DNA of 64,000 nt from a virus, in IMG/VR virus record IMGVR_UViG_3300003886_000002. One strand, written 5' to 3'. Position numbers and translations under genes: made by a program. Positions 13,621 through 35,051 of this stretch are shown here, in pieces. Numbering within the stretch: position 1 is the first letter of the stretch; every line of letters begins with the position of its first letter. The notes beneath the pieces are model-generated. The model was not told where the DNA came from. It ran no database searches and worked only from the letters and a program-made list of their open reading frames with translations.

Positions 13621-13638
13621 CGATCCTGGAACCTGAGG

Positions 13639-13731
13639 TCAGTCTATGCAGACTGTGCCTGTCCCTAAGGCGCCACCACGCGTAAACGTGGCAGCGGTGA
13701 TGATTCGTGCCGCTCGCTGTACTGTTCTCAT
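13639..13731 (-). CDS. leader peptide of tRNA operon B (Met/Ala/Gly/Phe/Val/Cys/Ile/Thr)
   Basis: GAGGAGG RBS; MRTVQRAARIITAATFTRGGALGTGTVCID. Confidence 0.8.
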   Translation of the reverse strand: MRTVQRAARIITAATFTRGGALGTGTVCID

Positions 13732-13769
13732 TGCGTTGGGCCTCCTCTCAGGTCCAGACCTGTGAAAGC

Positions 13770-13797
13770 ATCATAGCATAGATGCATGCCAGGTCAA
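13770..13797 (-). promoter_or_regulatory. promoter of tRNA operon B
   Basis: TTGACC-N16-TATGAT with extended TGn -10. Confidence 0.75.
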
Positions 13798-13804
13798 CCC
13801 CATA

Positions 13805-24296: not shown

Positions 24297-27200
24297 CTAC
24301 AGGATTCTCAAGAAATCGTACCCAAGTTCATTACCCTGGTTAGCCCCAACGGTACACACAAGTGCCCCTGGGGACGATTGTGACCCTGTTGCGTTCTGCC
24401 ACCAGATAGAACCCCCGTCCTGTGCAGGGCACTGTATCCATGTACGCGGCCCAAAGTTCTTAACGCATAGGTGGTGGTAATGCCCTGTGAAAAGAAGTCG
24501 GGCATCCCCTACAGGACGCTCCCCTGCCATTTGCCCCGTCCACCAGTTATAGACCTTCTGTTCCACAGCTCCCCCCTTGGTACATAGATGACCGTGGGTG
24601 AAACCTACCACAACCCCACCGATGTCTAACACTATCGCCAACTCTTCATCCGGGATCACATATTTTACATGACCAAAGGCATCGTCGTTCATCGACAGGA
24701 TTTCGGCAACCATCTCGAAGATAGCGACATCGTCGTTATCCCCCGGGGTTGTAAATGCCTTAGCCTTCCCACCCGATGAAGATGACCCGCCACGGTTCTC
24801 CCCATGGTTTCCCCCCACCCCACCTAATATCAGGCGTGGAACAATCTTCGAGAGTCCTATCGTTCCATCCCTGAGGCAACGACGCGTAAGCCTAAGCTGC
24901 TCACGCCGATTCAGTTCAACTGTAAAGGGTTGCGACGGATAGTTCCCCCAACAATTGCCTGTCAGGAGATCGTTCACCAATGCGAAGGCGTGCGTCTCAG
25001 ACACCACAGCACAATACACTTCGTCTTCTCGTCCCACATCTTCAACTGATTCGATACACCAATACCTGTCACGATCACAACATGACAAGTAGTTAGATAA
25101 GGCACCGACCATCTGCTTGAACGCAAGCCTGTGGGGTTCTTCTACAAAGAACCATTCTGGGATGGTTGACTCAATGAGTGCAAGTCTATATGAGGAAGCA
25201 AACCCCCCGTCAGCAGTTGTGTATCGTTTGCATGTAATGGGCTGTGTCCCTATACCTACATGTGAACAGACCCAAGCATAGCGTTCTAGGGCAGACACAT
25301 CCGTTGAAGAAACATGGACAGTTTCGTCCACATCTCCCGCAGTAGCGAAATATCCTGCGGCCCAACCCATCAGGTACTCAGGAGTCTCGTCTCCTCTTGG
25401 GAAGGGTCTGACATCCGGCGATGTAGGTATAGGGCTATTAAGGGAACTACTGTGTCCATCGGGGCAACCGTATCCGTGTTGCACCCCAAGCGCGTCTATC
25501 TGGTATGGGTTGTCCGCAAATGTGCTTGCCAGGAAGTCTCCTTGACCAAGTTCTGCGGTAACAACCTCTTCTCCATCTGTCGCATCTAGCGAACTATCTA
25601 GACGGAACCAGCGGTGCCCAGGGGTCGCCCACTCTGTCCGCTCTACCCCCATACGTGACATCGTGATCTTTAGGAGTCTCTGCTTCCCAAACGACTTGAC
25701 GTCCGCGTTTACCCACTCCCCGCGGGTGGTTTGCAGCACTGCATGCCCTTCAATGGCAAGTTTATCAATCCTCTGTGTCCCGCTGTTAGTCACCACTTGA
25801 GTTTCTGGGGCAACACACTGCTCTACAAGGTCCCCCATACCAATAAGGTATAGGCAGCCGATATCAATGTTGATTCTTCGGAGATCTGCAACATAGTCTG
25901 CCACGCGGTCAAATGATGTCATAACCCGGTCAATTGTTCCCTTAACTCCATCCCCGTCACTATTATGTGTCACAACAAGGTCGTGTCCTGCAAGGTATAG
26001 GCCACCTTCAACAGTGATGCACTGTGCGCTCACCATCCCTGCGGGCTCCACAGACCTAACCAACAGCGAACGGGACTGTCCACTATCCGATGTAGTCAGC
26101 TGTGCGAGTTTCGGCTTCATCCTAAACACTTGGTGATCTTCACGATCCCCGTCCGGCATGAACTCCACACTATAGATAGGCTTCCCTGACGTATTGGGCA
26201 GTAGCCCTTGTACCTGTGAGCGTAATGTTTTCATCCCAAGGCTTGCCACTAGCCAATCCACAGCATCTACAATCTGGATATCGGCAGTGACTTTAACTAT
26301 CCCGGATGATGTAACACTAGCCCCCACGTCAAGCAGCCCTTGTAGGAGCCTTAAACGCTGGGATACAGAACCAAGCAACAGATTGGGTGGGATCTGCCCA
26401 GGGGACAATAGCCCGGCAATATACAGATCATCTAACAACCCTTCTATAGCAATACCTACATATCCAATCTGAGGGACAGCATGGAATGTTGCCTGTGTCT
26501 CAAACAAGTTAGCCCAGTGGGCAGCATCACCTAATGGAACTACTATCTTGCCTGTATCTGCGTCCCCTCCACTGATCCACGCCCCCCATAGGTATGGGTC
26601 AACCCCCATTTGGACAGAGTCAAGGAGCACGGGCTGTGGCAGACCAATACGGAAACCCTCACCTGCCTGATCAGGGGCGTCTTGGTCAATGAATCTTCGT
26701 TGAATAATCTCCTGTGTTGTGTATACCAACTGTTGTTGCGGAGGTTGACCATCTGATGCTTTTCGTGAGTCCCACCCAAGCCAGCCATGCTGACCAGAGG
26801 CAACCAACGAAACCCCATTGTCAAACCCAATACGGGAGCAAGGCTGTTCAGCAGAACCTGTTACAGACAGAACCCTGACAGGGTTGCCATTTACTCCATA
26901 CACACTGTCCCCTGCCCGGAGATGCCCATGCAGCACCCACCCTCCTGGGGTAAGAACCGGAGTGTCATCCGATAAAGCTTTACCTATCTGCCAATCAGAC
27001 AGGCACATGAGCAGGTCAACGGGTTCGTCAGGAATCAGGAGTGAACGTTTAGGTTTCTTGTGCCTCCCGATACCAACTAAAAGTTCTTTAATGTCAAGGC
27101 CATAGTATGCTGCTCGCAGCCTTATACGTGCCTTGTAGTAATAGAACCGTTCAATGCTCCCGGCCCCCATGTTGGCGTCCCATGCACGAAACTCTGGGTT

Positions 27201-27449
27201 GTAGTTTGGGTCTATCTCATATACTTCTGGGTCCAGATCCCATACATTCAGTAGATCTGTCCATTCAGCATTGCTAGGAGCCCCTGGGACTGTACGGGGG
27301 CCTGTAGACAGAACCCCTGTTTGTCCTGTGAATTCGACCCCCGACTCCCATCCTTTAGGGTGGGTGCGCTCAACGCGTTGCGCCTCTGCTTGCCGCCGCT
27401 TCGTCCCCTGCACTACCTCAAGATTCTCGATGTCGTCGGATAAACCCAT
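24297..27449 (-). CDS. metallophosphoesterase/nuclease with two inteins
   Basis: Extein motifs SDWQIGK, GDLVE, GGNHGE, THGH, GHYHH. Confidence 0.85.
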   Translation of the reverse strand: MGLSDDIENLEVVQGTKRRQAEAQRVERTHPKGWESGVEFTGQTGVLSTGPRTVPGAPSNAEWTDLLNVWDLDPEVYEIDPNYNPEFRAWDANMGAGSIERFYYYKARIRLRAAYYGLDIKELLVGIGRHKKPKRSLLIPDEPVDLLMCLSDWQIGKALSDDTPVLTPGGWVLHGHLRAGDSVYGVNGNPVRVLSVTGSAEQPCSRIGFDNGVSLVASGQHGWLGWDSRKASDGQPPQQQLVYTTQEIIQRRFIDQDAPDQAGEGFRIGLPQPVLLDSVQMGVDPYLWGAWISGGDADTGKIVVPLGDAAHWANLFETQATFHAVPQIGYVGIAIEGLLDDLYIAGLLSPGQIPPNLLLGSVSQRLRLLQGLLDVGASVTSSGIVKVTADIQIVDAVDWLVASLGMKTLRSQVQGLLPNTSGKPIYSVEFMPDGDREDHQVFRMKPKLAQLTTSDSGQSRSLLVRSVEPAGMVSAQCITVEGGLYLAGHDLVVTHNSDGDGVKGTIDRVMTSFDRVADYVADLRRINIDIGCLYLIGMGDLVEQCVAPETQVVTNSGTQRIDKLAIEGHAVLQTTRGEWVNADVKSFGKQRLLKITMSRMGVERTEWATPGHRWFRLDSSLDATDGEEVVTAELGQGDFLASTFADNPYQIDALGVQHGYGCPDGHSSSLNSPIPTSPDVRPFPRGDETPEYLMGWAAGYFATAGDVDETVHVSSTDVSALERYAWVCSHVGIGTQPITCKRYTTADGGFASSYRLALIESTIPEWFFVEEPHRLAFKQMVGALSNYLSCCDRDRYWCIESVEDVGREDEVYCAVVSETHAFALVNDLLTGNCWGNYPSQPFTVELNRREQLRLTRRCLRDGTIGLSKIVPRLILGGVGGNHGENRGGSSSSGGKAKAFTTPGDNDDVAIFEMVAEILSMNDDAFGHVKYVIPDEELAIVLDIGGVVVGFTHGHLCTKGGAVEQKVYNWWTGQMAGERPVGDARLLFTGHYHHLCVKNFGPRTWIQCPAQDGGSIWWQNATGSQSSPGALVCTVGANQGNELGYDFLRIL
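24954..25817 (-). mobile_element. intein (288 aa)
   Basis: CVAPETQ...ATPGHRW...VYCAVV...LLTGN/C. Confidence 0.85.
25962..26978 (-). mobile_element. intein (339 aa), Ala1, class-3-like
   Basis: ALSDDTPV...SGQHGW...LQGLLDVG...AQCITV...VVTHN/S. Confidence 0.85.
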
Positions 27450-27742
27450 CACTCCACCTGCGTCCATTGGCAACGGCAAACGCTACGACGATGCCTCTGT
27501 ATCGAGCTGCTAACCACCCTGCTGGCTGCGTCCCTAAACAGGGACGGAAATGACTCATCGGATGCCCATACAGCAACCATTTCGGCTATGTGGGTTCCAT
27601 AAATATGGGAGTCTAATAATTCCTTAAAGGCGGAACAGTCTTTATCAGACATCTGCTCCATGAGTGTGGCAACTCCGCATGATGGGCCTGAACTAGGCCG
27701 CCACCCTTTGCGAAAGTTTTGGATCTCGTCTGCCAGATTCAA
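27449..27742 (-). CDS. hypothetical protein
   Basis: 97 aa, coupled to the phosphoesterase; SIQRHRRSVCRC. Confidence 0.7.
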   Translation of the reverse strand: MNLADEIQNFRKGWRPSSGPSCGVATLMEQMSDKDCSAFKELLDSHIYGTHIAEMVAVWASDESFPSLFRDAASRVVSSSIQRHRRSVCRCQWTQVE

Positions 27743-27790
27743 GATAGCCCCCCTCGGCGTAGCTTCAAAGCATTGAGGGTGAAACCTAAA

Positions 27791-30700
27791 TCATGTACCA
27801 CAGCATGGGGGCTCTGCCTCATCTTGCACATCTGCAACCTCGGGGTTGATTGTCTCTACCCCATTATCGTTGCCGACGCGTCCCAAGATTGCAAAAAGAC
27901 GTGACGCTGCACGTTCTGCACGGATAGGTCGCAGAGCCCCACGAAGCTCAACAATCTCTGCACGAAGCTCAGCCACGTCAGCCCCAAGTGATCCCACCTG
28001 GGGAAATGTGCGCTGCACCATACCTGCCGCGACAAGTGACCTCATTTCACCAGAACCTGAATCGTAGATACCCTGAGGGTTACGACCAGCAGATGCAACC
28101 AAACTGTCTTGGACAATGAACCCTGAGAGGTTCACAGCCAACAGCCCAACCACCTCAAGGTTCTTCCTGATCCTACGCCAGTCAGGAGAGATATCTGAGC
28201 CACGGAGCGCTTGCACCTGCTCCGGAGAAGCGCTAGGTCGAACCGCCCCAGCGGCAACAATTCCCCACGCATTCTCATACAGGTGAACGTCTGCTACAGC
28301 ACACCCCGTATCTGCATAGTGCGCCTCAGCATCCGAAGCCAACAACCGCAGGTTGGGGTGAACCGTATCCATGTAGACAGGGCCACATAGCACCTGCTCG
28401 CCCTCATCAGTAACAACCCCGGGCTTATGGAATGCACTGAACCTGTTCTCTGTATGTGGGACACCCACACACTTATCGGAGAACCCGATATGGCAAGATC
28501 CCCACCGGGCAATCAACCCATAGCAGCGTCCATCTGCATATACCTGAAACTCCTCAGGCTCACCCATGTCGTCAAGTTCGAACCAAGAAGTAGGGGGATT
28601 CAAAGGAGGCGTCAAATTCTTGTTCCCTGCACTGGCGACAAGCGAATCAGGACTCACACGCTGCATGCGCTCTCCCTGCAAAGCGATAGGGACTGGTGAT
28701 GTAAAGCGCCACACATCCCCACGCTCATACCCAGAGGCAACCAATGCTTCGTCATCAGATGCTATGTCTGCGTCAATCACGTGTACCTGTGCCTCTTGGA
28801 ACGCTGGAAAAGGTGTAAGCGTGGCTCCCATGAGCCTGCCTTCTATGAGGACCTGTAGTATATCGTCATCAGAAAGCATCGCGTCAAGAGGGTCTACCTG
28901 ACCGCCACTTGCGTCTTGGAACTCGATAGTTACCATGTCTATGTCTGCGGAAACTCCACGCATGGTACCTTCCGCTATGAGGCGGCGCGCTTCCTTCCCT
29001 TGCTCCCCAGAATCAAAGGAACCACGTCCTATGATCTCTTGGCCTACACGCTCAATCTCCTGTATAGACCCGGCGATAGCTGCACCATCGTGGCCCTCAG
29101 CGTTTACTGTCTGCAACATGAGGGGCAGTGGCAGCTTGCGCCACGTTAGGGTACCTTCGCTTATGAGGCGCCCATCACCAGAAACAACCCCTTCCACAAT
29201 GAGTACCCCCTCCCATTCGAAGTCGCCGCTGACAACGTCCCCATCGATGATCGTATCGTCGCTAGACGTTGCGCTATCCCCATCTGTTCCATCTGGCTGA
29301 GAGTTCGGGCCGTCAACGATTTCATCGTCTCCTGCAAGCTCCTGTACGGAGTCGTCGCTCAACCCCAGTTCGGTTTCTAGTTCCTGTTGTTCCTGAGGGG
29401 TCAATGTTGACTGGCTCTGCTCAACCCATCGGTGAACAATTTCACCAATAAGTTCCCCGTCATTGAGTTCAGTAATATCGCGCTTGCCTGCAAGGTTCGC
29501 TACCTGTTCAAACCACTGAGCCCTCATGTCGCCTATAGCGCTTTCTACATCTGTGATGGGCTCGGCCTCACCTAGATCTGGGACGTTGACCCCTCCGTCG
29601 CGGAGGTGGCGGGCAAGGTGGTTAAAGACCCCTTGGTAATCGCTTGTTGGGATGGTGGAATCATCGATTACGGTAATGGCAGAATGGGCTGCCCACATGA
29701 CTGCTGCCCCAGGGTTGCCATCTTGGTCCACCACGTGGTGAATGAACTTGTATGCGGTCTTTGACCCGGCGGCTCTGTCCTCGTCTCGCCAAGCGAAGAT
29801 ACGTGCGTAGTAGCTTTGGTCTTCTCCCTGGCGGGTACGTTTCTTCGCCTCGTCACCGTTCCACCCTTCGAAGGTGGCAGGGTTGATCGTGGGGGTGCTA
29901 TGGGATGCTAGTGGCCCAAACTCTGCCACTATTTCAGTGGCTGTTGTGTCAAAGTCTTCGTTGGGGTCTACAGGGTTGTTGATGTAGTAGAGATCTACTA
30001 AGTCTGACATGTACCTATGGTCAGTAGGGTTAACAACTACCCCTTCTTCTACGGCCTGTGCGAGCAGTCCAGCATCTTGCAGCGACATCAGCTCAGGTGG
30101 TTCAAGGTCCGCATCGCTCAAATGGGATGCCAGGTGTTTGTAAACCCCTTCCCTGTCTCCACTCGGGATGGTTGTTCCCCCACGTGCCCCATTTAGGACA
30201 CCGATGCCTGTAGACGCCGCGACTGTTGATGCATCCCCTGGGGTTCCGTCATCACCAACGAAGTGATGTATGAACCTGTAGGCGGCTTTCACAGTAGTGT
30301 CTGCCTCATCATCACGCCACGCGTAGATACGAGCGAAATAGTCCTCGTCGCTAGGGGACGTAACCTTCTTCTCGTTCTCCGGCCCATCCCAAGTGTCGAC
30401 AGATGTAGGGGTGTCATGAGGGCTGATAGCAGCAAACGGTTCACTTCCGTCGTCCATCTCGTCTTCATCATCTGTCGTGTCTGTGCCCAAATCGGCAGCA
30501 ATGCCACTCATGAATTCCAAGATGGCTGCCCACTGATCTTCCGTAACCGATGACGATTCTTCACCGTCAGGAGTATCCTCGCTTTCAACCAACTTATCCA
30601 TAGCTTCCTGGGCGGACTCTACAGAATCGTGGCAGCTGATGACAGCCCCGGATTCTGGATCTACGAGTGCCACTGTTGATTCCCCATCGGTGCTCTCGAC

Positions 30701-31417
30701 ACAGTCAGCAGAGTCCTCAACAATGTCCAACCCCGCGGGGTCACCTACAAAGGTCTCCTGTGTACTACCTACTACGGTCTTTGCGGCCACGGTCAATTCC
30801 TCCTCAGTCGGCCCGGAAAGACCCACGTCAACGATTTCTGTACCCCAACGTAATGTGATGTTATCTAAATTCAATGGTAGACCAACTAGGTCCGCGCTGT
30901 CGGGAACTGGCCCATAGTTCAACGTAATATGTGGCTGGAAGTCGTGGTCTTGACGCACTGAGACGCCATTCTCGTTTAGCAGATGCACCAAATCGCTTCT
31001 GAACTCACCTAACCCAGGGGCATCTACCAACGCCAAAGTAATCCCATCAGTCCCGCTCTTCCCGAAAGATCCGATACCTGCTACTTCCCCATCGAAAGGG
31101 GAATAACGCTCTGCAACCCCAGCGATAACTGCCTCTACTGTTTCGCGATCCAACCCGTCACTGATAGCCCCCAGGGAAGCAAGAGTGACATGTAGAGATT
31201 CAGGCTGTTCCCCGCCTGACCGGGCCAACTCTTGTTTCTGGTCGTCTGTAGGCTCAACAGTAACGATGGCACTGTTGGAATGGTCAGCAAACGCCTGTGC
31301 GCGTTCCATCTTTGACGATAGAAGCACAAACAGGTTCTCAGGGAACTCCCCTACACTAACCAGCCCAGGGGTAGACACATCGGCAGAGCCACCGCTTATG
31401 GTAGTGATATCAGTCAT
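27791..31417 (-). CDS. head maturation protease-like protein fused to 2H phosphoesterase and duplicated domain
   Basis: LHVTL and PHITL motifs; two ARI[YF]AWRD...Y[RK]FIHH repeats; WEGVLIVEG..SGDGR..LPLPL..GHDGA..GVSAD; directly after portal. Confidence 0.75.
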   Translation of the reverse strand: MTDITTISGGSADVSTPGLVSVGEFPENLFVLLSSKMERAQAFADHSNSAIVTVEPTDDQKQELARSGGEQPESLHVTLASLGAISDGLDRETVEAVIAGVAERYSPFDGEVAGIGSFGKSGTDGITLALVDAPGLGEFRSDLVHLLNENGVSVRQDHDFQPHITLNYGPVPDSADLVGLPLNLDNITLRWGTEIVDVGLSGPTEEELTVAAKTVVGSTQETFVGDPAGLDIVEDSADCVESTDGESTVALVDPESGAVISCHDSVESAQEAMDKLVESEDTPDGEESSSVTEDQWAAILEFMSGIAADLGTDTTDDEDEMDDGSEPFAAISPHDTPTSVDTWDGPENEKKVTSPSDEDYFARIYAWRDDEADTTVKAAYRFIHHFVGDDGTPGDASTVAASTGIGVLNGARGGTTIPSGDREGVYKHLASHLSDADLEPPELMSLQDAGLLAQAVEEGVVVNPTDHRYMSDLVDLYYINNPVDPNEDFDTTATEIVAEFGPLASHSTPTINPATFEGWNGDEAKKRTRQGEDQSYYARIFAWRDEDRAAGSKTAYKFIHHVVDQDGNPGAAVMWAAHSAITVIDDSTIPTSDYQGVFNHLARHLRDGGVNVPDLGEAEPITDVESAIGDMRAQWFEQVANLAGKRDITELNDGELIGEIVHRWVEQSQSTLTPQEQQELETELGLSDDSVQELAGDDEIVDGPNSQPDGTDGDSATSSDDTIIDGDVVSGDFEWEGVLIVEGVVSGDGRLISEGTLTWRKLPLPLMLQTVNAEGHDGAAIAGSIQEIERVGQEIIGRGSFDSGEQGKEARRLIAEGTMRGVSADIDMVTIEFQDASGGQVDPLDAMLSDDDILQVLIEGRLMGATLTPFPAFQEAQVHVIDADIASDDEALVASGYERGDVWRFTSPVPIALQGERMQRVSPDSLVASAGNKNLTPPLNPPTSWFELDDMGEPEEFQVYADGRCYGLIARWGSCHIGFSDKCVGVPHTENRFSAFHKPGVVTDEGEQVLCGPVYMDTVHPNLRLLASDAEAHYADTGCAVADVHLYENAWGIVAAGAVRPSASPEQVQALRGSDISPDWRRIRKNLEVVGLLAVNLSGFIVQDSLVASAGRNPQGIYDSGSGEMRSLVAAGMVQRTFPQVGSLGADVAELRAEIVELRGALRPIRAERAASRLFAILGRVGNDNGVETINPEVADVQDEAEPPCCGT

Positions 31418-34400
31418 TGTTCTGATAGGGGTCTACATCCACCTCATACGCCTTCTCTAATGATCCCACAACGAACCCTGTAGGAACACTCAATCCGTTT
31501 ACCCCTGTACGTATAGGCTTTATGAATGCTGTCGCCATATGGGCTGTAAGCACAACAGACAGGTACTGCGAAGCCGCTTTTGCACGCTCGTCCGCCATGA
31601 AAGGATTCTCACCCTTTACTATAAAGTATTCCCTGACCCAAGCTGTGACATCTACCTCAAGGTTGACCCATGCGTCACGCATGAGATCTTCCTTGTGAAG
31701 ATTCATAACGCTGTAGTCATTCTCAGAGAGAACAGAAAGCATCTCATACTTATCGTGCTTGCGGATCTCATCCTTCACAGGCAGATCCGTCCCGTTCAGT
31801 CTAGATATGATTCGATTCGATGCGCGTTCAATAGCTCGTTTCAGCGCAGCATCAGCGGCAGTCTGCAAACGTTCCAGGAGAGCAGCCTCGCCTCCACCCC
31901 CTGGGATACTTGGTCCCCGCGCCTCAGGAACCTGCTGCCCTGTATCAGAATCTGGGATATCTACATCTGTCCCCCCGTCACCCGCCCTTGGCCCCTGGCC
32001 ACGCTGACGCGCCTCATTACCCGGAGATGTCAAATCTTCAGGAGTGAAAATGTCCCCTAGATCTGGGTAAAGTTCTCCAATAACCCGTGTACCCCACAAG
32101 ATGGGTTCTGAGAACATAAGCTTCTCAAGGGTGCGCCTCTTACGCTCCTCCTCATCAGGGGCATCTGAAACATCGAACCCGTTTGCACGCAGATACGACG
32201 CCTCTTTGATAGCTATACGGTCATATGCCCCACGGGCTGCCGGTCCCGTATCTGTACGAGACGTCAACAAGGTTGCATCAAAATTGAGCCTGTAACGAGC
32301 CGCCTTCTCCTCAGTCATGCTCTCACATGTAATTAGCATCGGACGCAAATACGCAACCGTAAGAAACTCAGCTATCTTCTGACCCTTAGGAACAATATGC
32401 TTATCAATGAAATCTGCGTCAATGTTGTAGGAGGTCTGCCCCGTATAGACAACCTTGCCGCTACGCCGGATCATCACGCTGTGATGCGGGGGAACCGTCG
32501 GGCACCAGATCGTGCCCGTATACGATTCGACAGACATCTCCTTCCGCCCCAGGCCGAATGTCGTTTTCCGTGAAATCGACAGCATCGTGCCATTTTGCTT
32601 CGTCTCATAAATATGCGTGGACCGCCCAGAAAGGATGGCTGCCAACTCCAACGGAGCGAGACGATCGCGTTCGGACTGAGTGATGTGCATGGTCCCTGCG
32701 GAGAGAACTGTTCCATCAGCACGAACAGACACATCAATGAACAACTCAATCTGAGATGCCGTCAGGTCATGAATGAATCCCAAATCAAGAACCTTGCGTT
32801 CTGGGTCGGAAAAGAACGGAACCAGCAAGTCCGCTGCGGAAGCGTTCAAACGGAAATCGGTCATGTCGGGACGTTCTGGCCGAATTTGCTCAGCCCACGC
32901 AGGGTCACGCCTCCCTCCGGTCGGACGACCCACGTGACCATCCGTCAAATGCTCTTTGGCATTCCCTAACAAAAGTGTCAAGGAGTTACGAATCCGCTCG
33001 ACATGGAAGGGGTTCACCTTATTCGACTGACATATCGATACCTGTGGGGACTGGTCACGATTTTTGAATCGAATGTTCCCTTCAGTCCAGAGCCACGCAA
33101 GGACCTCGACTAATTCGTCGGACCACTTCATCTCCTTCGGGCGGTCCGATGAAGGGGCTGCCACAAGGAGCGAATCATTTGAGTTGAGTTCTTCACTGGT
33201 GGTCCAGATACGGTCCTGACCGACCACACGGGATGTTGTGCGGCCATCCACGTCAGTCACATTTTCTCGGATCTTGTGAAGTGTCGGCCAACGGTGGTCC
33301 ATCGTGGTCAACGACGAATGTCGGTCACCCTCTATAGAGAGCATCGGTAAATCAACCACGTCGGCTCGGTAAACGTCAGTCGATGGGCGCCACTCGGTTG
33401 CCCCTGTCTCATGGTTCAATGACAGCAGAATGTCCCCCACCTCAAATTCGTCTATCCCCTTCCAACCATCAGTGGTAAGAACCTCCGTCTTGTCGTCGCA
33501 ACACCAATGGTTAAGCCCACCCTTTCCACCAATCACTTCTGGAGGGGCGTCCATACCTGTTGCAAGACGCTGTAGCGCCTCTTGACGCAGCGACTGGTAC
33601 AGGGTGTCTAATCCACGTGCAAGGTCTACCAAACCCATCAGGTCCTTAGCAGGCTTGCCGTCGATCATGGCAGGGCCACGCATAAGGAGCGGGATCAGCG
33701 ATGCGGCAGATGTACGGTCTTCGACCGGTGCTTTGATCTGGTCGATCCACTCTTCTGAGAACTCGTCAATTTCGTCAGTATCTGCCCCATCATTCTCCGT
33801 TTCGTCGAATGACCCGAATGAGAACTCGTCGGGAAGATAGTAGATTCCTGCGTTGAGACGACCCTTAGCAATTGCATCCACAACCTGGGTAAGTAAAACG
33901 ATTTCACGACAGTTGTGAACCACGACCCCCTGTACAATGAAGTTGGCTGGTCCCGGCACCGTCAGGTCCCATACAGGGGCAACTCCGTCCGGTTCTACGG
34001 ACTGCACCCGGGTGACTGCGAACCCGTCCCCGACAGCGCCTTCGTCAGCGGTGACGATGCAATGATCACCAGTGAGTTCCTGGACCTGCACCCATTGAAC
34101 GTCATCTGATGGAACTATTCCCCCGTCACCCACAACATGCTGGGTTGCCAGGATGCGGTGGTCTGCTGTAGCCCGTACAGTGTAGACGCCTGCCTGAACC
34201 TTCAACACGGGTTTGTCACCATTCGCTGTCACGGCAGACACAGGGGAGAGGACGGCGCGCCCACCATCCCACGCCCATACTTCGTCGCCAACACTGACAT
34301 CCTGAATCGCAACTAACCCTAAATCTGTGGAAACCAGTTCTCCTTCTGCTACACAGATGGGGAGCAAACGTTTAACCGCAGAATATGCTCTGTGATAGAA

Positions 34401-35051
34401 GCGGGGGTCAGGCTGCCATAAGCGTGCTACGTAAGTTTCTTTCGGAAGGTCTACCCGCCCACCTGAGCCTGTCTCCCCGATACGCTGTATCTTGTTTCCG
34501 CTAGGCTTGAGTTCCTCTGTAGACAAGAACTCCCACACAATTCCTTCGTCTACACCTGTAAGCTCATTCTTTATTGGGGTGCCCACAAGGTAGGATTCCC
34601 CTGCCGTGTACAAGTGTTCTGATGCACGTTTGATAAGTTCTTTCTTCCCCCCCTGCGGACCTACGAAGGCGTCCCATATGCTGTTAACCTTTTCATCTGC
34701 CGTATCAACCCAGCCGAAATCATTGGCAAGGTCACGTTCTTGTGTCCGTATGACACACGACGATATTGCGTCTGATGTCAACTCAATCAGATAGCCCAGC
34801 TCGCCTATCACCTCTGCAAACCCATACGCGTCCCGCTGCCACGCCTCATTTGGGGTAAGGGGAATCGCAAGATCCCCAAGCTTGGTTAGGCGTCCCGGAG
34901 CAAAAATGGCAGACTGCCCCGGCTTGATGATTGCAAACTCTGCCCCTCGGCCCCGCATGGAACCGCTGCGGCGAAGTGGTCCTTGTCTCGGCACGCGTGT
35001 AAACCTCTCCACATTCGTTACATCTAGAGCGTAGCCTACTCGGCGACGCAA
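31410..35051 (-). CDS. portal protein with two inteins
   Basis: WQRDAYGFAEVIGEL, RLWQPDP, RLATGMDAPPEVIGG..LNHW; position upstream of protease. Confidence 0.8.
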   Translation of the reverse strand: MRRRVGYALDVTNVERFTRVPRQGPLRRSGSMRGRGAEFAIIKPGQSAIFAPGRLTKLGDLAIPLTPNEAWQRDAYGFAEVIGELGYLIELTSDAISSCVIRTQERDLANDFGWVDTADEKVNSIWDAFVGPQGGKKELIKRASEHLYTAGESYLVGTPIKNELTGVDEGIVWEFLSTEELKPSGNKIQRIGETGSGGRVDLPKETYVARLWQPDPRFYHRAYSAVKRLLPICVAEGELVSTDLGLVAIQDVSVGDEVWAWDGGRAVLSPVSAVTANGDKPVLKVQAGVYTVRATADHRILATQHVVGDGGIVPSDDVQWVQVQELTGDHCIVTADEGAVGDGFAVTRVQSVEPDGVAPVWDLTVPGPANFIVQGVVVHNCREIVLLTQVVDAIAKGRLNAGIYYLPDEFSFGSFDETENDGADTDEIDEFSEEWIDQIKAPVEDRTSAASLIPLLMRGPAMIDGKPAKDLMGLVDLARGLDTLYQSLRQEALQRLATGMDAPPEVIGGKGGLNHWCCDDKTEVLTTDGWKGIDEFEVGDILLSLNHETGATEWRPSTDVYRADVVDLPMLSIEGDRHSSLTTMDHRWPTLHKIRENVTDVDGRTTSRVVGQDRIWTTSEELNSNDSLLVAAPSSDRPKEMKWSDELVEVLAWLWTEGNIRFKNRDQSPQVSICQSNKVNPFHVERIRNSLTLLLGNAKEHLTDGHVGRPTGGRRDPAWAEQIRPERPDMTDFRLNASAADLLVPFFSDPERKVLDLGFIHDLTASQIELFIDVSVRADGTVLSAGTMHITQSERDRLAPLELAAILSGRSTHIYETKQNGTMLSISRKTTFGLGRKEMSVESYTGTIWCPTVPPHHSVMIRRSGKVVYTGQTSYNIDADFIDKHIVPKGQKIAEFLTVAYLRPMLITCESMTEEKAARYRLNFDATLLTSRTDTGPAARGAYDRIAIKEASYLRANGFDVSDAPDEEERKRRTLEKLMFSEPILWGTRVIGELYPDLGDIFTPEDLTSPGNEARQRGQGPRAGDGGTDVDIPDSDTGQQVPEARGPSIPGGGGEAALLERLQTAADAALKRAIERASNRIISRLNGTDLPVKDEIRKHDKYEMLSVLSENDYSVMNLHKEDLMRDAWVNLEVDVTAWVREYFIVKGENPFMADERAKAASQYLSVVLTAHMATAFIKPIRTGVNGLSVPTGFVVGSLEKAYEVDVDPYQNND
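32436..33503 (-). mobile_element. intein (356 aa) ending in Gln
   Basis: CCDDKTEVLT...TTMDHRW...AWLWTEG...IWCPT...VYTGQ/T. Confidence 0.85.
33912..34355 (-). mobile_element. mini-intein (148 aa)
   Basis: CVAEGELV...ATADHRI...VWDLTV...VVHN/C. Confidence 0.9.

Follow-up and report, generated by a model that had tools for sequence, protein, structure and literature searches.

A short leader ORF matched to its own tRNA array, set in a structured leader RNA of an uncultured phage

The locus described here lies on the minus strand between the gene of an RlaP-type nucleotidyltransferase and a tRNA-Met(cat) which opens an array of tRNA genes (array M). It was analysed within a window of 64,000 nucleotides of phage DNA, and "the window" below refers to this whole stretch. 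Features are written from the higher to the lower coordinate.

14488-13805, minus strand: RlaP gene; 184 nt separate it from tRNA-Met
13797-13770, minus strand: sigma-70-like promoter, 10 of 12 matches
13797-13792, minus strand: -35 element of this promoter, 16-nt spacer to the -10
13775-13770, minus strand: -10 element of this promoter, preceded by TG
13763-13732, minus strand: predicted 5' UTR of the leader (32 nt), counted from the putative start site
13760-13747, minus strand: 5' strand of a predicted long-range helix (MFE, centroid and duplex test), 3 nt past the predicted 5' end
13747-13741, minus strand: Shine-Dalgarno (SD) site of the GGAGG type, 9 nt upstream of the ATG
13731-13639, minus strand: leader ORF B, 30 codons plus TGA, with the stop 18 nt ahead of tRNA-Met
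13695-13672, minus strand: predicted internal hairpin of 10 bp with three G-U pairs, over codons 13-20
13655-13640, minus strand: predicted 6-bp hairpin (13655-13650 with 13645-13640) on the last codons, the 3' arm ending in the TG of the stop
13637-13622, minus strand: 3' strand of the predicted long-range helix, starting 2 nt after the stop and ending 1 nt before the tRNA
13620-13546, minus strand: tRNA-Met(cat), first gene of array M (ARAGORN), initiator-like with a 1:72 mismatch
13519-13471, minus strand: predicted hairpin in the gap between tRNA-Met and the next tRNA, very stable, with 14 perfect pairs, an inner stem and no U tract
13467-12458, minus strand: ten further tRNAs of array M, namely Ala, Gly, Phe, Val, Cys, Met, Ile, Thr, Thr and Thr (ARAGORN)

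Transcription of the leader would start near 13763. An identical promoter word heads three arrays of the window, that is, L, M and E (8300-8273, 13797-13770 and 17244-17217, respectively). The same word with two mismatches is also located at 63720-63693 (minus strand), ahead of an ordinary SD-led gene.

The window has a G+C content of ~53% across its first 46 kb and of 57-61% past that. Its phage genes include those of a portal protein, a large terminase, RtcB, the RlaP-type nucleotidyltransferase, RNA ligases and DNA methylases, and a Clp-type protease, labelled by PHROGs as head-maturation protease, is also encoded. The ORFs of the terminase and portal region (24297-35051, minus strand) are very long (1060-1213 aa) and contain extra domains, that is, an exonuclease, a LigT-like 2'-5' RNA ligase and Hint/intein pieces. 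ARAGORN and Rfam detected 29 tRNA genes and a tmRNA in the window, all of them on the minus strand. Array T is followed by the tmRNA (21548-21133, minus strand), which encodes a tag of 25 residues; a 68-codon ORF ends 37 nt upstream of this tmRNA.

DNA searches against cultured phages returned no match, either for the window or for the leader region. The nearest cultured proteins to RlaP are from Streptomyces phages, with at most 46.5% identity (492 records, mostly actinophages). In the cultured Streptomyces phages with the nearest RlaP, LuckySocke and Satis, tRNAs are interspersed with protein genes and a tRNA array next to RlaP was not found.

Searches with RlaP provided 64 fetched loci, among which six distinct ones carry a tRNA-Met-led array downstream of RlaP. 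These relatives comprise four IMG/VR records, for which the whole tRNA regions were fetched, and two metagenome contigs; four of the six are near-identical within the leader. The synteny of RlaP, leader and tRNA-Met is kept in all of them, and their RlaP proteins share only about 47-56% identity with that of the window. The distance from the RlaP match to the array is 190-216 nt in five relatives and about 950 nt in L056. Before tRNA-Met, each relative shows a -10-like hexamer, then a GGAGG-containing 5' UTR (34-38 nt) and a 26-29-codon ORF. Within the seven array-M leaders (window included), GGAGG is always placed 5-9 nt upstream of the start codon and the stop 11-18 nt from tRNA-Met. The leader ORF, its SD site and its position ahead of tRNA-Met are conserved in the six relatives. 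Leader B, which had been described from the letters of the window as a leader with a ribosome-binding site, holds as a short ORF with SD site and ATG; it is kept in the relatives and, as shown below, matched to its array. A 14-nt word from the relatives' leader was found in viral contigs at a minimum of 120 loci; among the matches listed, two were followed by a tRNA, and both were already known.

In the window and the four IMG/VR relatives there are four arrays each (T, E, M and L), in the same order, and a promoter with a short ORF stands at the head of each. In total, 22 leaders were compared, seven from array M and 15 from arrays T, E and L. The leaders are built on two scaffolds. All seven array-M leaders are SD-led, with a 5' UTR of ~32-38 nt containing GGAGG. 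In all 15 leaders of the other arrays, the start codon is located 7-9 nt past a -10-like hexamer and no GGAGG was seen by eye. The T, E and L leaders would therefore be leaderless or nearly so, whereas leader B, with its predicted 32-nt UTR and SD site, would not start in this way. As far as the sequences go, the difference between the scaffolds is real and conserved, in agreement with the earlier remark that leader B is unlike the other three.

The four leaders were then compared with the amino acids served by the arrays that they precede. Background fractions refer to 8062 residues from the long ORFs of the window.

Array T (Tyr, Ser; in the window also the tmRNA), leader ORF 22633-22577, minus strand: 10 of 17 residues among the amino acids served by this array (the own set), background 0.09
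Array E (Glu, Asp, Trp, Arg, Pro), leader ORF 17207-17112, minus strand: 21 of 30 residues, background 0.28
Array M (Met, Ala, Gly, Phe, Val, Cys, Ile, Thr), leader ORF 13731-13639 (leader B), minus strand: 22 of 29 residues, background 0.42
Array L (Leu, Pro, Gln, His, Asn, Lys), leader ORF 8263-8153, minus strand: 17 of 35 residues, background 0.27

For leader B, the binomial P is 1.9e-4 and the own-set fraction of the two other frames is 0.24. The match extends to all 22 leaders (P from 3.5e-9 to 4.7e-3), which are not independent cases because the five genomes are related. The reading frame matters, as the own-set fraction is 0.49-0.81 in frame 0 vs 0-0.40 in the two other frames. When leaders were permuted among arrays, the true assignment ranked first of 24 in each of the five genomes (2.53-2.86 vs 1.84-1.96 for the runner-up). 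The match persists up to the stop, with 72 of the 88 last-four residues in the own set. It still holds when the tRNA sets are taken from ARAGORN for each genome, being weaker at the codon level. For instance, under strict wobble only 13 of the 29 codons of leader B are readable by the anticodons of the array, vs 22 by amino acid. For the codons singled out by the sequence-only reading, tRNAs are found in the window for Thr (tgt, ggt, cgt), Ile (tat), Val (tac), Cys (gca) and Phe (gaa); a tRNA with the GAT anticodon of Ile, which it had also listed, is not found, according to ARAGORN and to Rfam with E up to 1.

The sequence of the leader itself is variable. Between the window and the relatives, 1-6 codons of the array-M leader are identical, 4-8 are synonymous and 13-20 are non-synonymous. 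A composition that is held while the sequence drifts, at this divergence, points to selection on composition. As predicted from sequence, both the ORF and its agreement with the array stand firm. A preference of the leaders for maximal codon variety was examined and dropped: leader B has 16 different codons vs 14.6 expected, which is not significant, and the sum for 20 leaders of the related genomes is 227 vs 203.2 (sd 5.0).

Some further observations were made on the arrays and their leaders. Arg occupies position 2, 3 or 4 in 20 of the 22 leaders, and of the 137 residues of the T, M and L leaders that do not belong to the own set, 53 are Arg; the four leaders may have inherited this feature from a common ancestor, or may share a need for it. 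A probable tRNA-Trp with anticodon CCA and a C:C pair closing the anticodon loop was seen by eye at about 16830-16745 (minus strand), where ARAGORN had missed it. A tRNA-Trp is located at the equivalent place in three of the four relatives (G002, G003 and G004), G001 being the one where it was not detected; a single codon of leader E is for Trp. Inside array L of the window, tRNA-Lys(ttt) is preceded at a distance of 20 nt by an SD-led small ORF of 38 codons (6306-6190, minus strand), among them six for Lys and two for Asn. The SD and first codons of this ORF are flanked by a short helix, and it was weakly flagged by the covariance model described below (E 0.35). No counterpart of this ORF was found in the arrays of the relatives, and it was the only one that stood out in a search for further SD-led ORFs in intra-array gaps of 100-700 nt.

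The RNA of the leader is predicted to be structured. The fold of the whole leader has an energy of -53.7 kcal/mol (z -2.7), matched by one of 200 shuffles. The sequence-only reading had linked the ribosome-binding site to the stop by a long-range helix. In detail, the two 9-mers that it had picked, 13755-13747 and 13637-13629, pair with one G-U, the second beginning 2 nt past the TGA. In both the MFE and the centroid structure of the transcript 13763-13621 the helix is longer than was claimed, with 14 bp and two single-base bulges (13760-13747 with 13637-13622), and it encloses three or four inner hairpins. Its overlap with the GAGGAGG word, which the original description had stated, amounts to only 1 nt. 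The claimed hairpin over the last codons is present, with 6 bp that take in the TG of the stop, and is unexceptional in stability: the fold of the last seven codons and the spacer, this hairpin included, is within the range of shuffles (fraction 0.26).

Is such a helix expected by chance? The duplex of the 5' UTR with the stop and spacer has an energy of -20.6 kcal/mol, which was reached by 2.2% of 1000 shuffles of the 3' side and by 0.6% of 1000 shuffles of the 5' side. Inverted repeats of at least 9 nt within 130 nt are common, with 28 pairs in 11.9 kb. The extended helix is therefore suggestive and the 9-mer alone is not, because the shuffle fractions are low but bare repeats of this length are ordinary. 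An explanation by chance complementarity in a G+C-rich, structured leader, with only the ORF and its composition being functional, draws on the frequency of these repeats and on the fact that the pairing was first picked by eye among many possible ones. It has to face the low shuffle fractions and the presence of the 14-bp helix in both MFE and centroid. By these predicted folds, the long-range helix is real in this genome.

The relatives add to both sides of this question. Pairing of the 5' UTR with the stop and spacer is no better than in shuffles in any of the six (0.23-0.84), and a short version of 5-6 bp appears in the MFE of two. The helix from ribosome-binding site to stop is thus formed in the predicted fold of the window but is not conserved. 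In five of the six relatives, the best partner of the 5' UTR is instead placed inside the ORF, 35-41 nt before the stop. In their consensus fold, a UTR strand just upstream of the SD has as its partner the best-conserved part of the ORF, where synonymous sites do not vary either. Covariation in homologs had been put forward as a check of the helix. In the relatives' helix 80% of cells are paired, with one compensatory pair and two or three G-U changes; this is no proof, because 73 of 500 shuffles do as well. The UTR strand of the relatives has two possible partners, within the ORF and before the tRNA, neither of them above shuffles.

The 5' strand of the window has the same place relative to the SD as that of the relatives. 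On visual comparison, the 3' strands of the window and of the relatives look alike, except that in the window the stop has moved ahead of the strand; two compensatory pairs would be gained by this alignment. A covariance model of the six relatives was tried as an objective test of the alignment and recovered the leader of the window only at E 9.3 and in a shifted place; because the model misses this leader, the matching of the two helices is by eye and biased towards structure. The lack of UTR-to-spacer pairing above shuffles in the relatives, the weak covariation and the failure of the model favor chance, whereas the shared location of the 5' strand, whose partner in the relatives is the most conserved nucleotide stretch of the ORF, speaks against it. 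On balance, we consider chance complementarity unlikely, though a serious contender. As a conserved switch, the long-range helix is weakly supported.

Masking of the ribosome-binding site by the helix was considered as well. In the full-length fold of the window, the SD core is unpaired with a probability of 0.58, above the mean of 0.38 obtained with a shuffled 3' part, which rules out this role for the window. Among the relatives, the drop in SD accessibility was below shuffles in only one of six.

The position of the helix directs attention to the first tRNA. On one side, 3 nt separate the helix from the predicted 5' end; on the other, 1 nt separates it from the tRNA. In five of the seven array-M leaders, the acceptor stem of the first tRNA is predicted to remain intact with the real leader (0.95-0.99), vs means of 0.15-0.44 with shuffled leaders; the test is crude because ViennaRNA ignores the tertiary structure of tRNAs. 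Mispairing of the leader with the first tRNA, which had been considered as a switch, is ruled out, since shuffled leaders mispair more than the real ones. With the T leaders, the tRNA fold is preserved no better than with shuffles.

The first tRNA of array M has a 1:72 mismatch in all seven genomes (window, L065, L001, L002, L068, L008 and L006), and the later CAT tRNA of the array has this position paired in most genomes. Bacterial initiator tRNAs have a mismatch at 1:72, and on this feature the first tRNA-Met may be an initiator. The hairpin that follows it varies in sequence but is above shuffles in six of six genomes (the window and five relatives; fraction at most 0.005). Because this hairpin follows the first tRNA, tRNA-Met sits between the leader ORF and a strong hairpin. 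Hairpins are also found at the other side, next to the stop of the leaders. They lie 0-9 nt from the tRNA in 21 of the 22 leaders and 16 nt from it in the M leader of G003, and are above shuffles in five of five T, four of five E and three of five L leaders, but in none of the seven M leaders.

These features would suit an insulating or stabilizing role, in which the helix and the stop-proximal hairpins only make the leader fold on itself, avoid mispairing with the tRNA and protect the ends, the ORF being translated without any switch. The sparing of the acceptor stem by the real M leaders, the placing of the helix ends, the T/E/L hairpins (12 of 15 above shuffles, each 0-9 nt before the tRNA and without a U tract) and the strong hairpin of variable sequence after the first tRNA are all in favor. 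On the contrary, the tRNA fold fares no better with the T leaders than with shuffles, the acceptor-stem test is crude as stated, and the mirroring of its own array by each leader is left unexplained. As a complete account of the locus, insulation is rather improbable. For the helix alone, the preservation of the acceptor stem fits a closing or insulating stem, and we read it as such on the basis of the predicted folds, not as a proven switch arm.

A classical attenuator of the trp type, where the helix or the small hairpin would be an arm of a terminator/antiterminator switch set by the position of the ribosome, is suggested by the presence of an ORF rich in cognate codons between promoter and structural genes. 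It is very unlikely, however, on several grounds. No U tract follows the last stop-proximal hairpin in any of the 22 leaders, with 0-3 T in the following 8 nt (one T in leader B), and because of this the leaders do not qualify as classical terminator attenuators. The same phage does possess a canonical U-tract terminator elsewhere (17292-17261). In the folds of the window, no antiterminator pairing exclusive with a terminator, or other alternative pairing, was seen. Array-M leaders leave no more than 11-18 nt between stop and tRNA, and a ribosome in the middle of the ORF would touch neither strand of the helix, judging from the geometry of the fold. The suggestion that leader B follows the "same logic" on another scaffold fails on the lack of U tracts if it is taken to mean terminator attenuation.

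A separate function for the peptide encoded by the small ORF is hardly credible: the presence and length of the ORF are conserved and six residues near the C-terminus form a motif shared by the six relatives, but non-synonymous changes outnumber synonymous ones between the window and the relatives, which share only the few codons counted above, the motif is conserved at synonymous sites too and coincides with the 3' strand of an RNA helix, and the composition tracks the own array in all four leader classes.

In our interpretation, an operon of 11 tRNAs in an uncultured phage of the actinophage type has its promoter, its SD-led leader ORF of 30 codons and its structured leader RNA within 13797-13621 (minus strand), and the ORF would act as a ribosome-read gauge of the supply of the operon's own tRNAs. 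This interpretation is tentative, and our confidence in it stays somewhat below even. It is preferred because it is the only reading which explains why each leader mirrors its own array. The signal would be the supply of the tRNAs of the array or of their charged forms. By analogy with leader-peptide transcription attenuation, the general principle of which is outlined in the available text of PMC1183508, ribosomes would linger on the leader when these tRNAs are scarce, for instance, after an attack of the host on tRNAs, and the output of the array would go up; with plentiful tRNAs, the leader would be cleared and the output damped. The likeness is one of working only and does not make the leaders members of that class.

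Since no U-tract terminator is present, the candidate steps of output are pausing or termination at hairpins without a U tract, Rho, and processing or stability of the precursor. Once the leader RNA is complete, the helix would fold it back on itself as far as the first tRNA, and the 5' end, apart from 3 free nt, would be tied to the base that precedes this tRNA. According to the geometry of the fold, a ribosome at the start or the stop codon would melt one strand of the helix, and a ribosome stalled in the middle of the ORF would leave it intact.

A bolder version, which goes beyond the gauge reading and which we would sooner expect to be wrong than right, can be proposed. The four leader ORFs might form a phage "ribulon", in which each one reports the depletion of one class of tRNAs (e.g., by anticodon nucleases of the host) and raises transcription or maturation of the matching array without a U-tract terminator. 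The SD-led start of leader B, its closing helix and the initiator-like tRNA ahead of a strong hairpin would then exist because this leader must also work when the initiator tRNA is short.

To our knowledge, hardly anything has been established on how phages control their tRNA arrays, which are currently viewed as a means of countering host tRNA depletion. Among the papers listed in literature searches, none dealt with leader ORFs before tRNA arrays or operons. If the gauge reading is true, leaders that mirror their arrays, kept where the flanking protein is about half identical, would be a simple way to supply replacement tRNAs on demand, and would carry leader-peptide sensing over from the supply of amino acids to that of tRNAs. 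Being without standard terminators, the leaders force the question of what the ribosome actually controls, and they offer two natural scaffolds for comparison, that is, a leaderless one and an SD-led one with a closing helix.

Leader-peptide attenuators of amino-acid operons can be multivalent, as in the thr and ilvGMEDA operons, and are also known from trp, his, leu and pheA. The phage leaders are similar to them in having a short ORF between promoter and structural genes, codons cognate to what the operon supplies, and several amino acids per leader. They differ in that tRNAs and not enzymes are controlled and in being phage-borne. Moreover, a hairpin with U-tract terminator and an antiterminator are lacking here, and the own-set codons occur throughout the ORF as far as the stop, instead of being clustered in runs.

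T-boxes bind uncharged tRNA directly and translation is not needed. The common point with the leaders is that the status of tRNAs is sensed in order to control genes of the decoding apparatus. Unlike a T-box, the leader B region (13621-13800) matched neither the T-box nor any other family of Rfam, at the gathering score and with E up to 1.

Leader peptides also precede genes of aminoacyl-tRNA synthetases, as in pheST of E. coli. In Streptomyces, trpS and leuS have leader peptides which, in the available text of Seliverstov et al. (2005; PMC1262725), sense a single amino acid, control protein genes and carry poly-U terminators. The same text mentions leader peptides of mycobacterial cys operons without terminators, for which Rho was suggested. 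The resemblance to these leaders, as far as that text goes, is that genes of the translation apparatus are placed under a codon-sensing leader and that actinobacterial cases without an obvious terminator exist.

The "Cys ribulon" of mycobacteria consists, in the portion of Canestrari et al. (10.1101/834739) that is available, of leaderless polycysteine short ORFs which unmask a downstream ribosome-binding site. In comparison with that description, the next gene is here a tRNA-Met located 18 nt past the stop, without a ribosome-binding site, and leader B is SD-led. On the other hand, the same portion of the source shows the similarities of an actinobacterial setting, of sensory 5' short ORFs, which in the case of the T, E and L leaders would be leaderless too, and of several loci that respond to one signal through the pausing of ribosomes.
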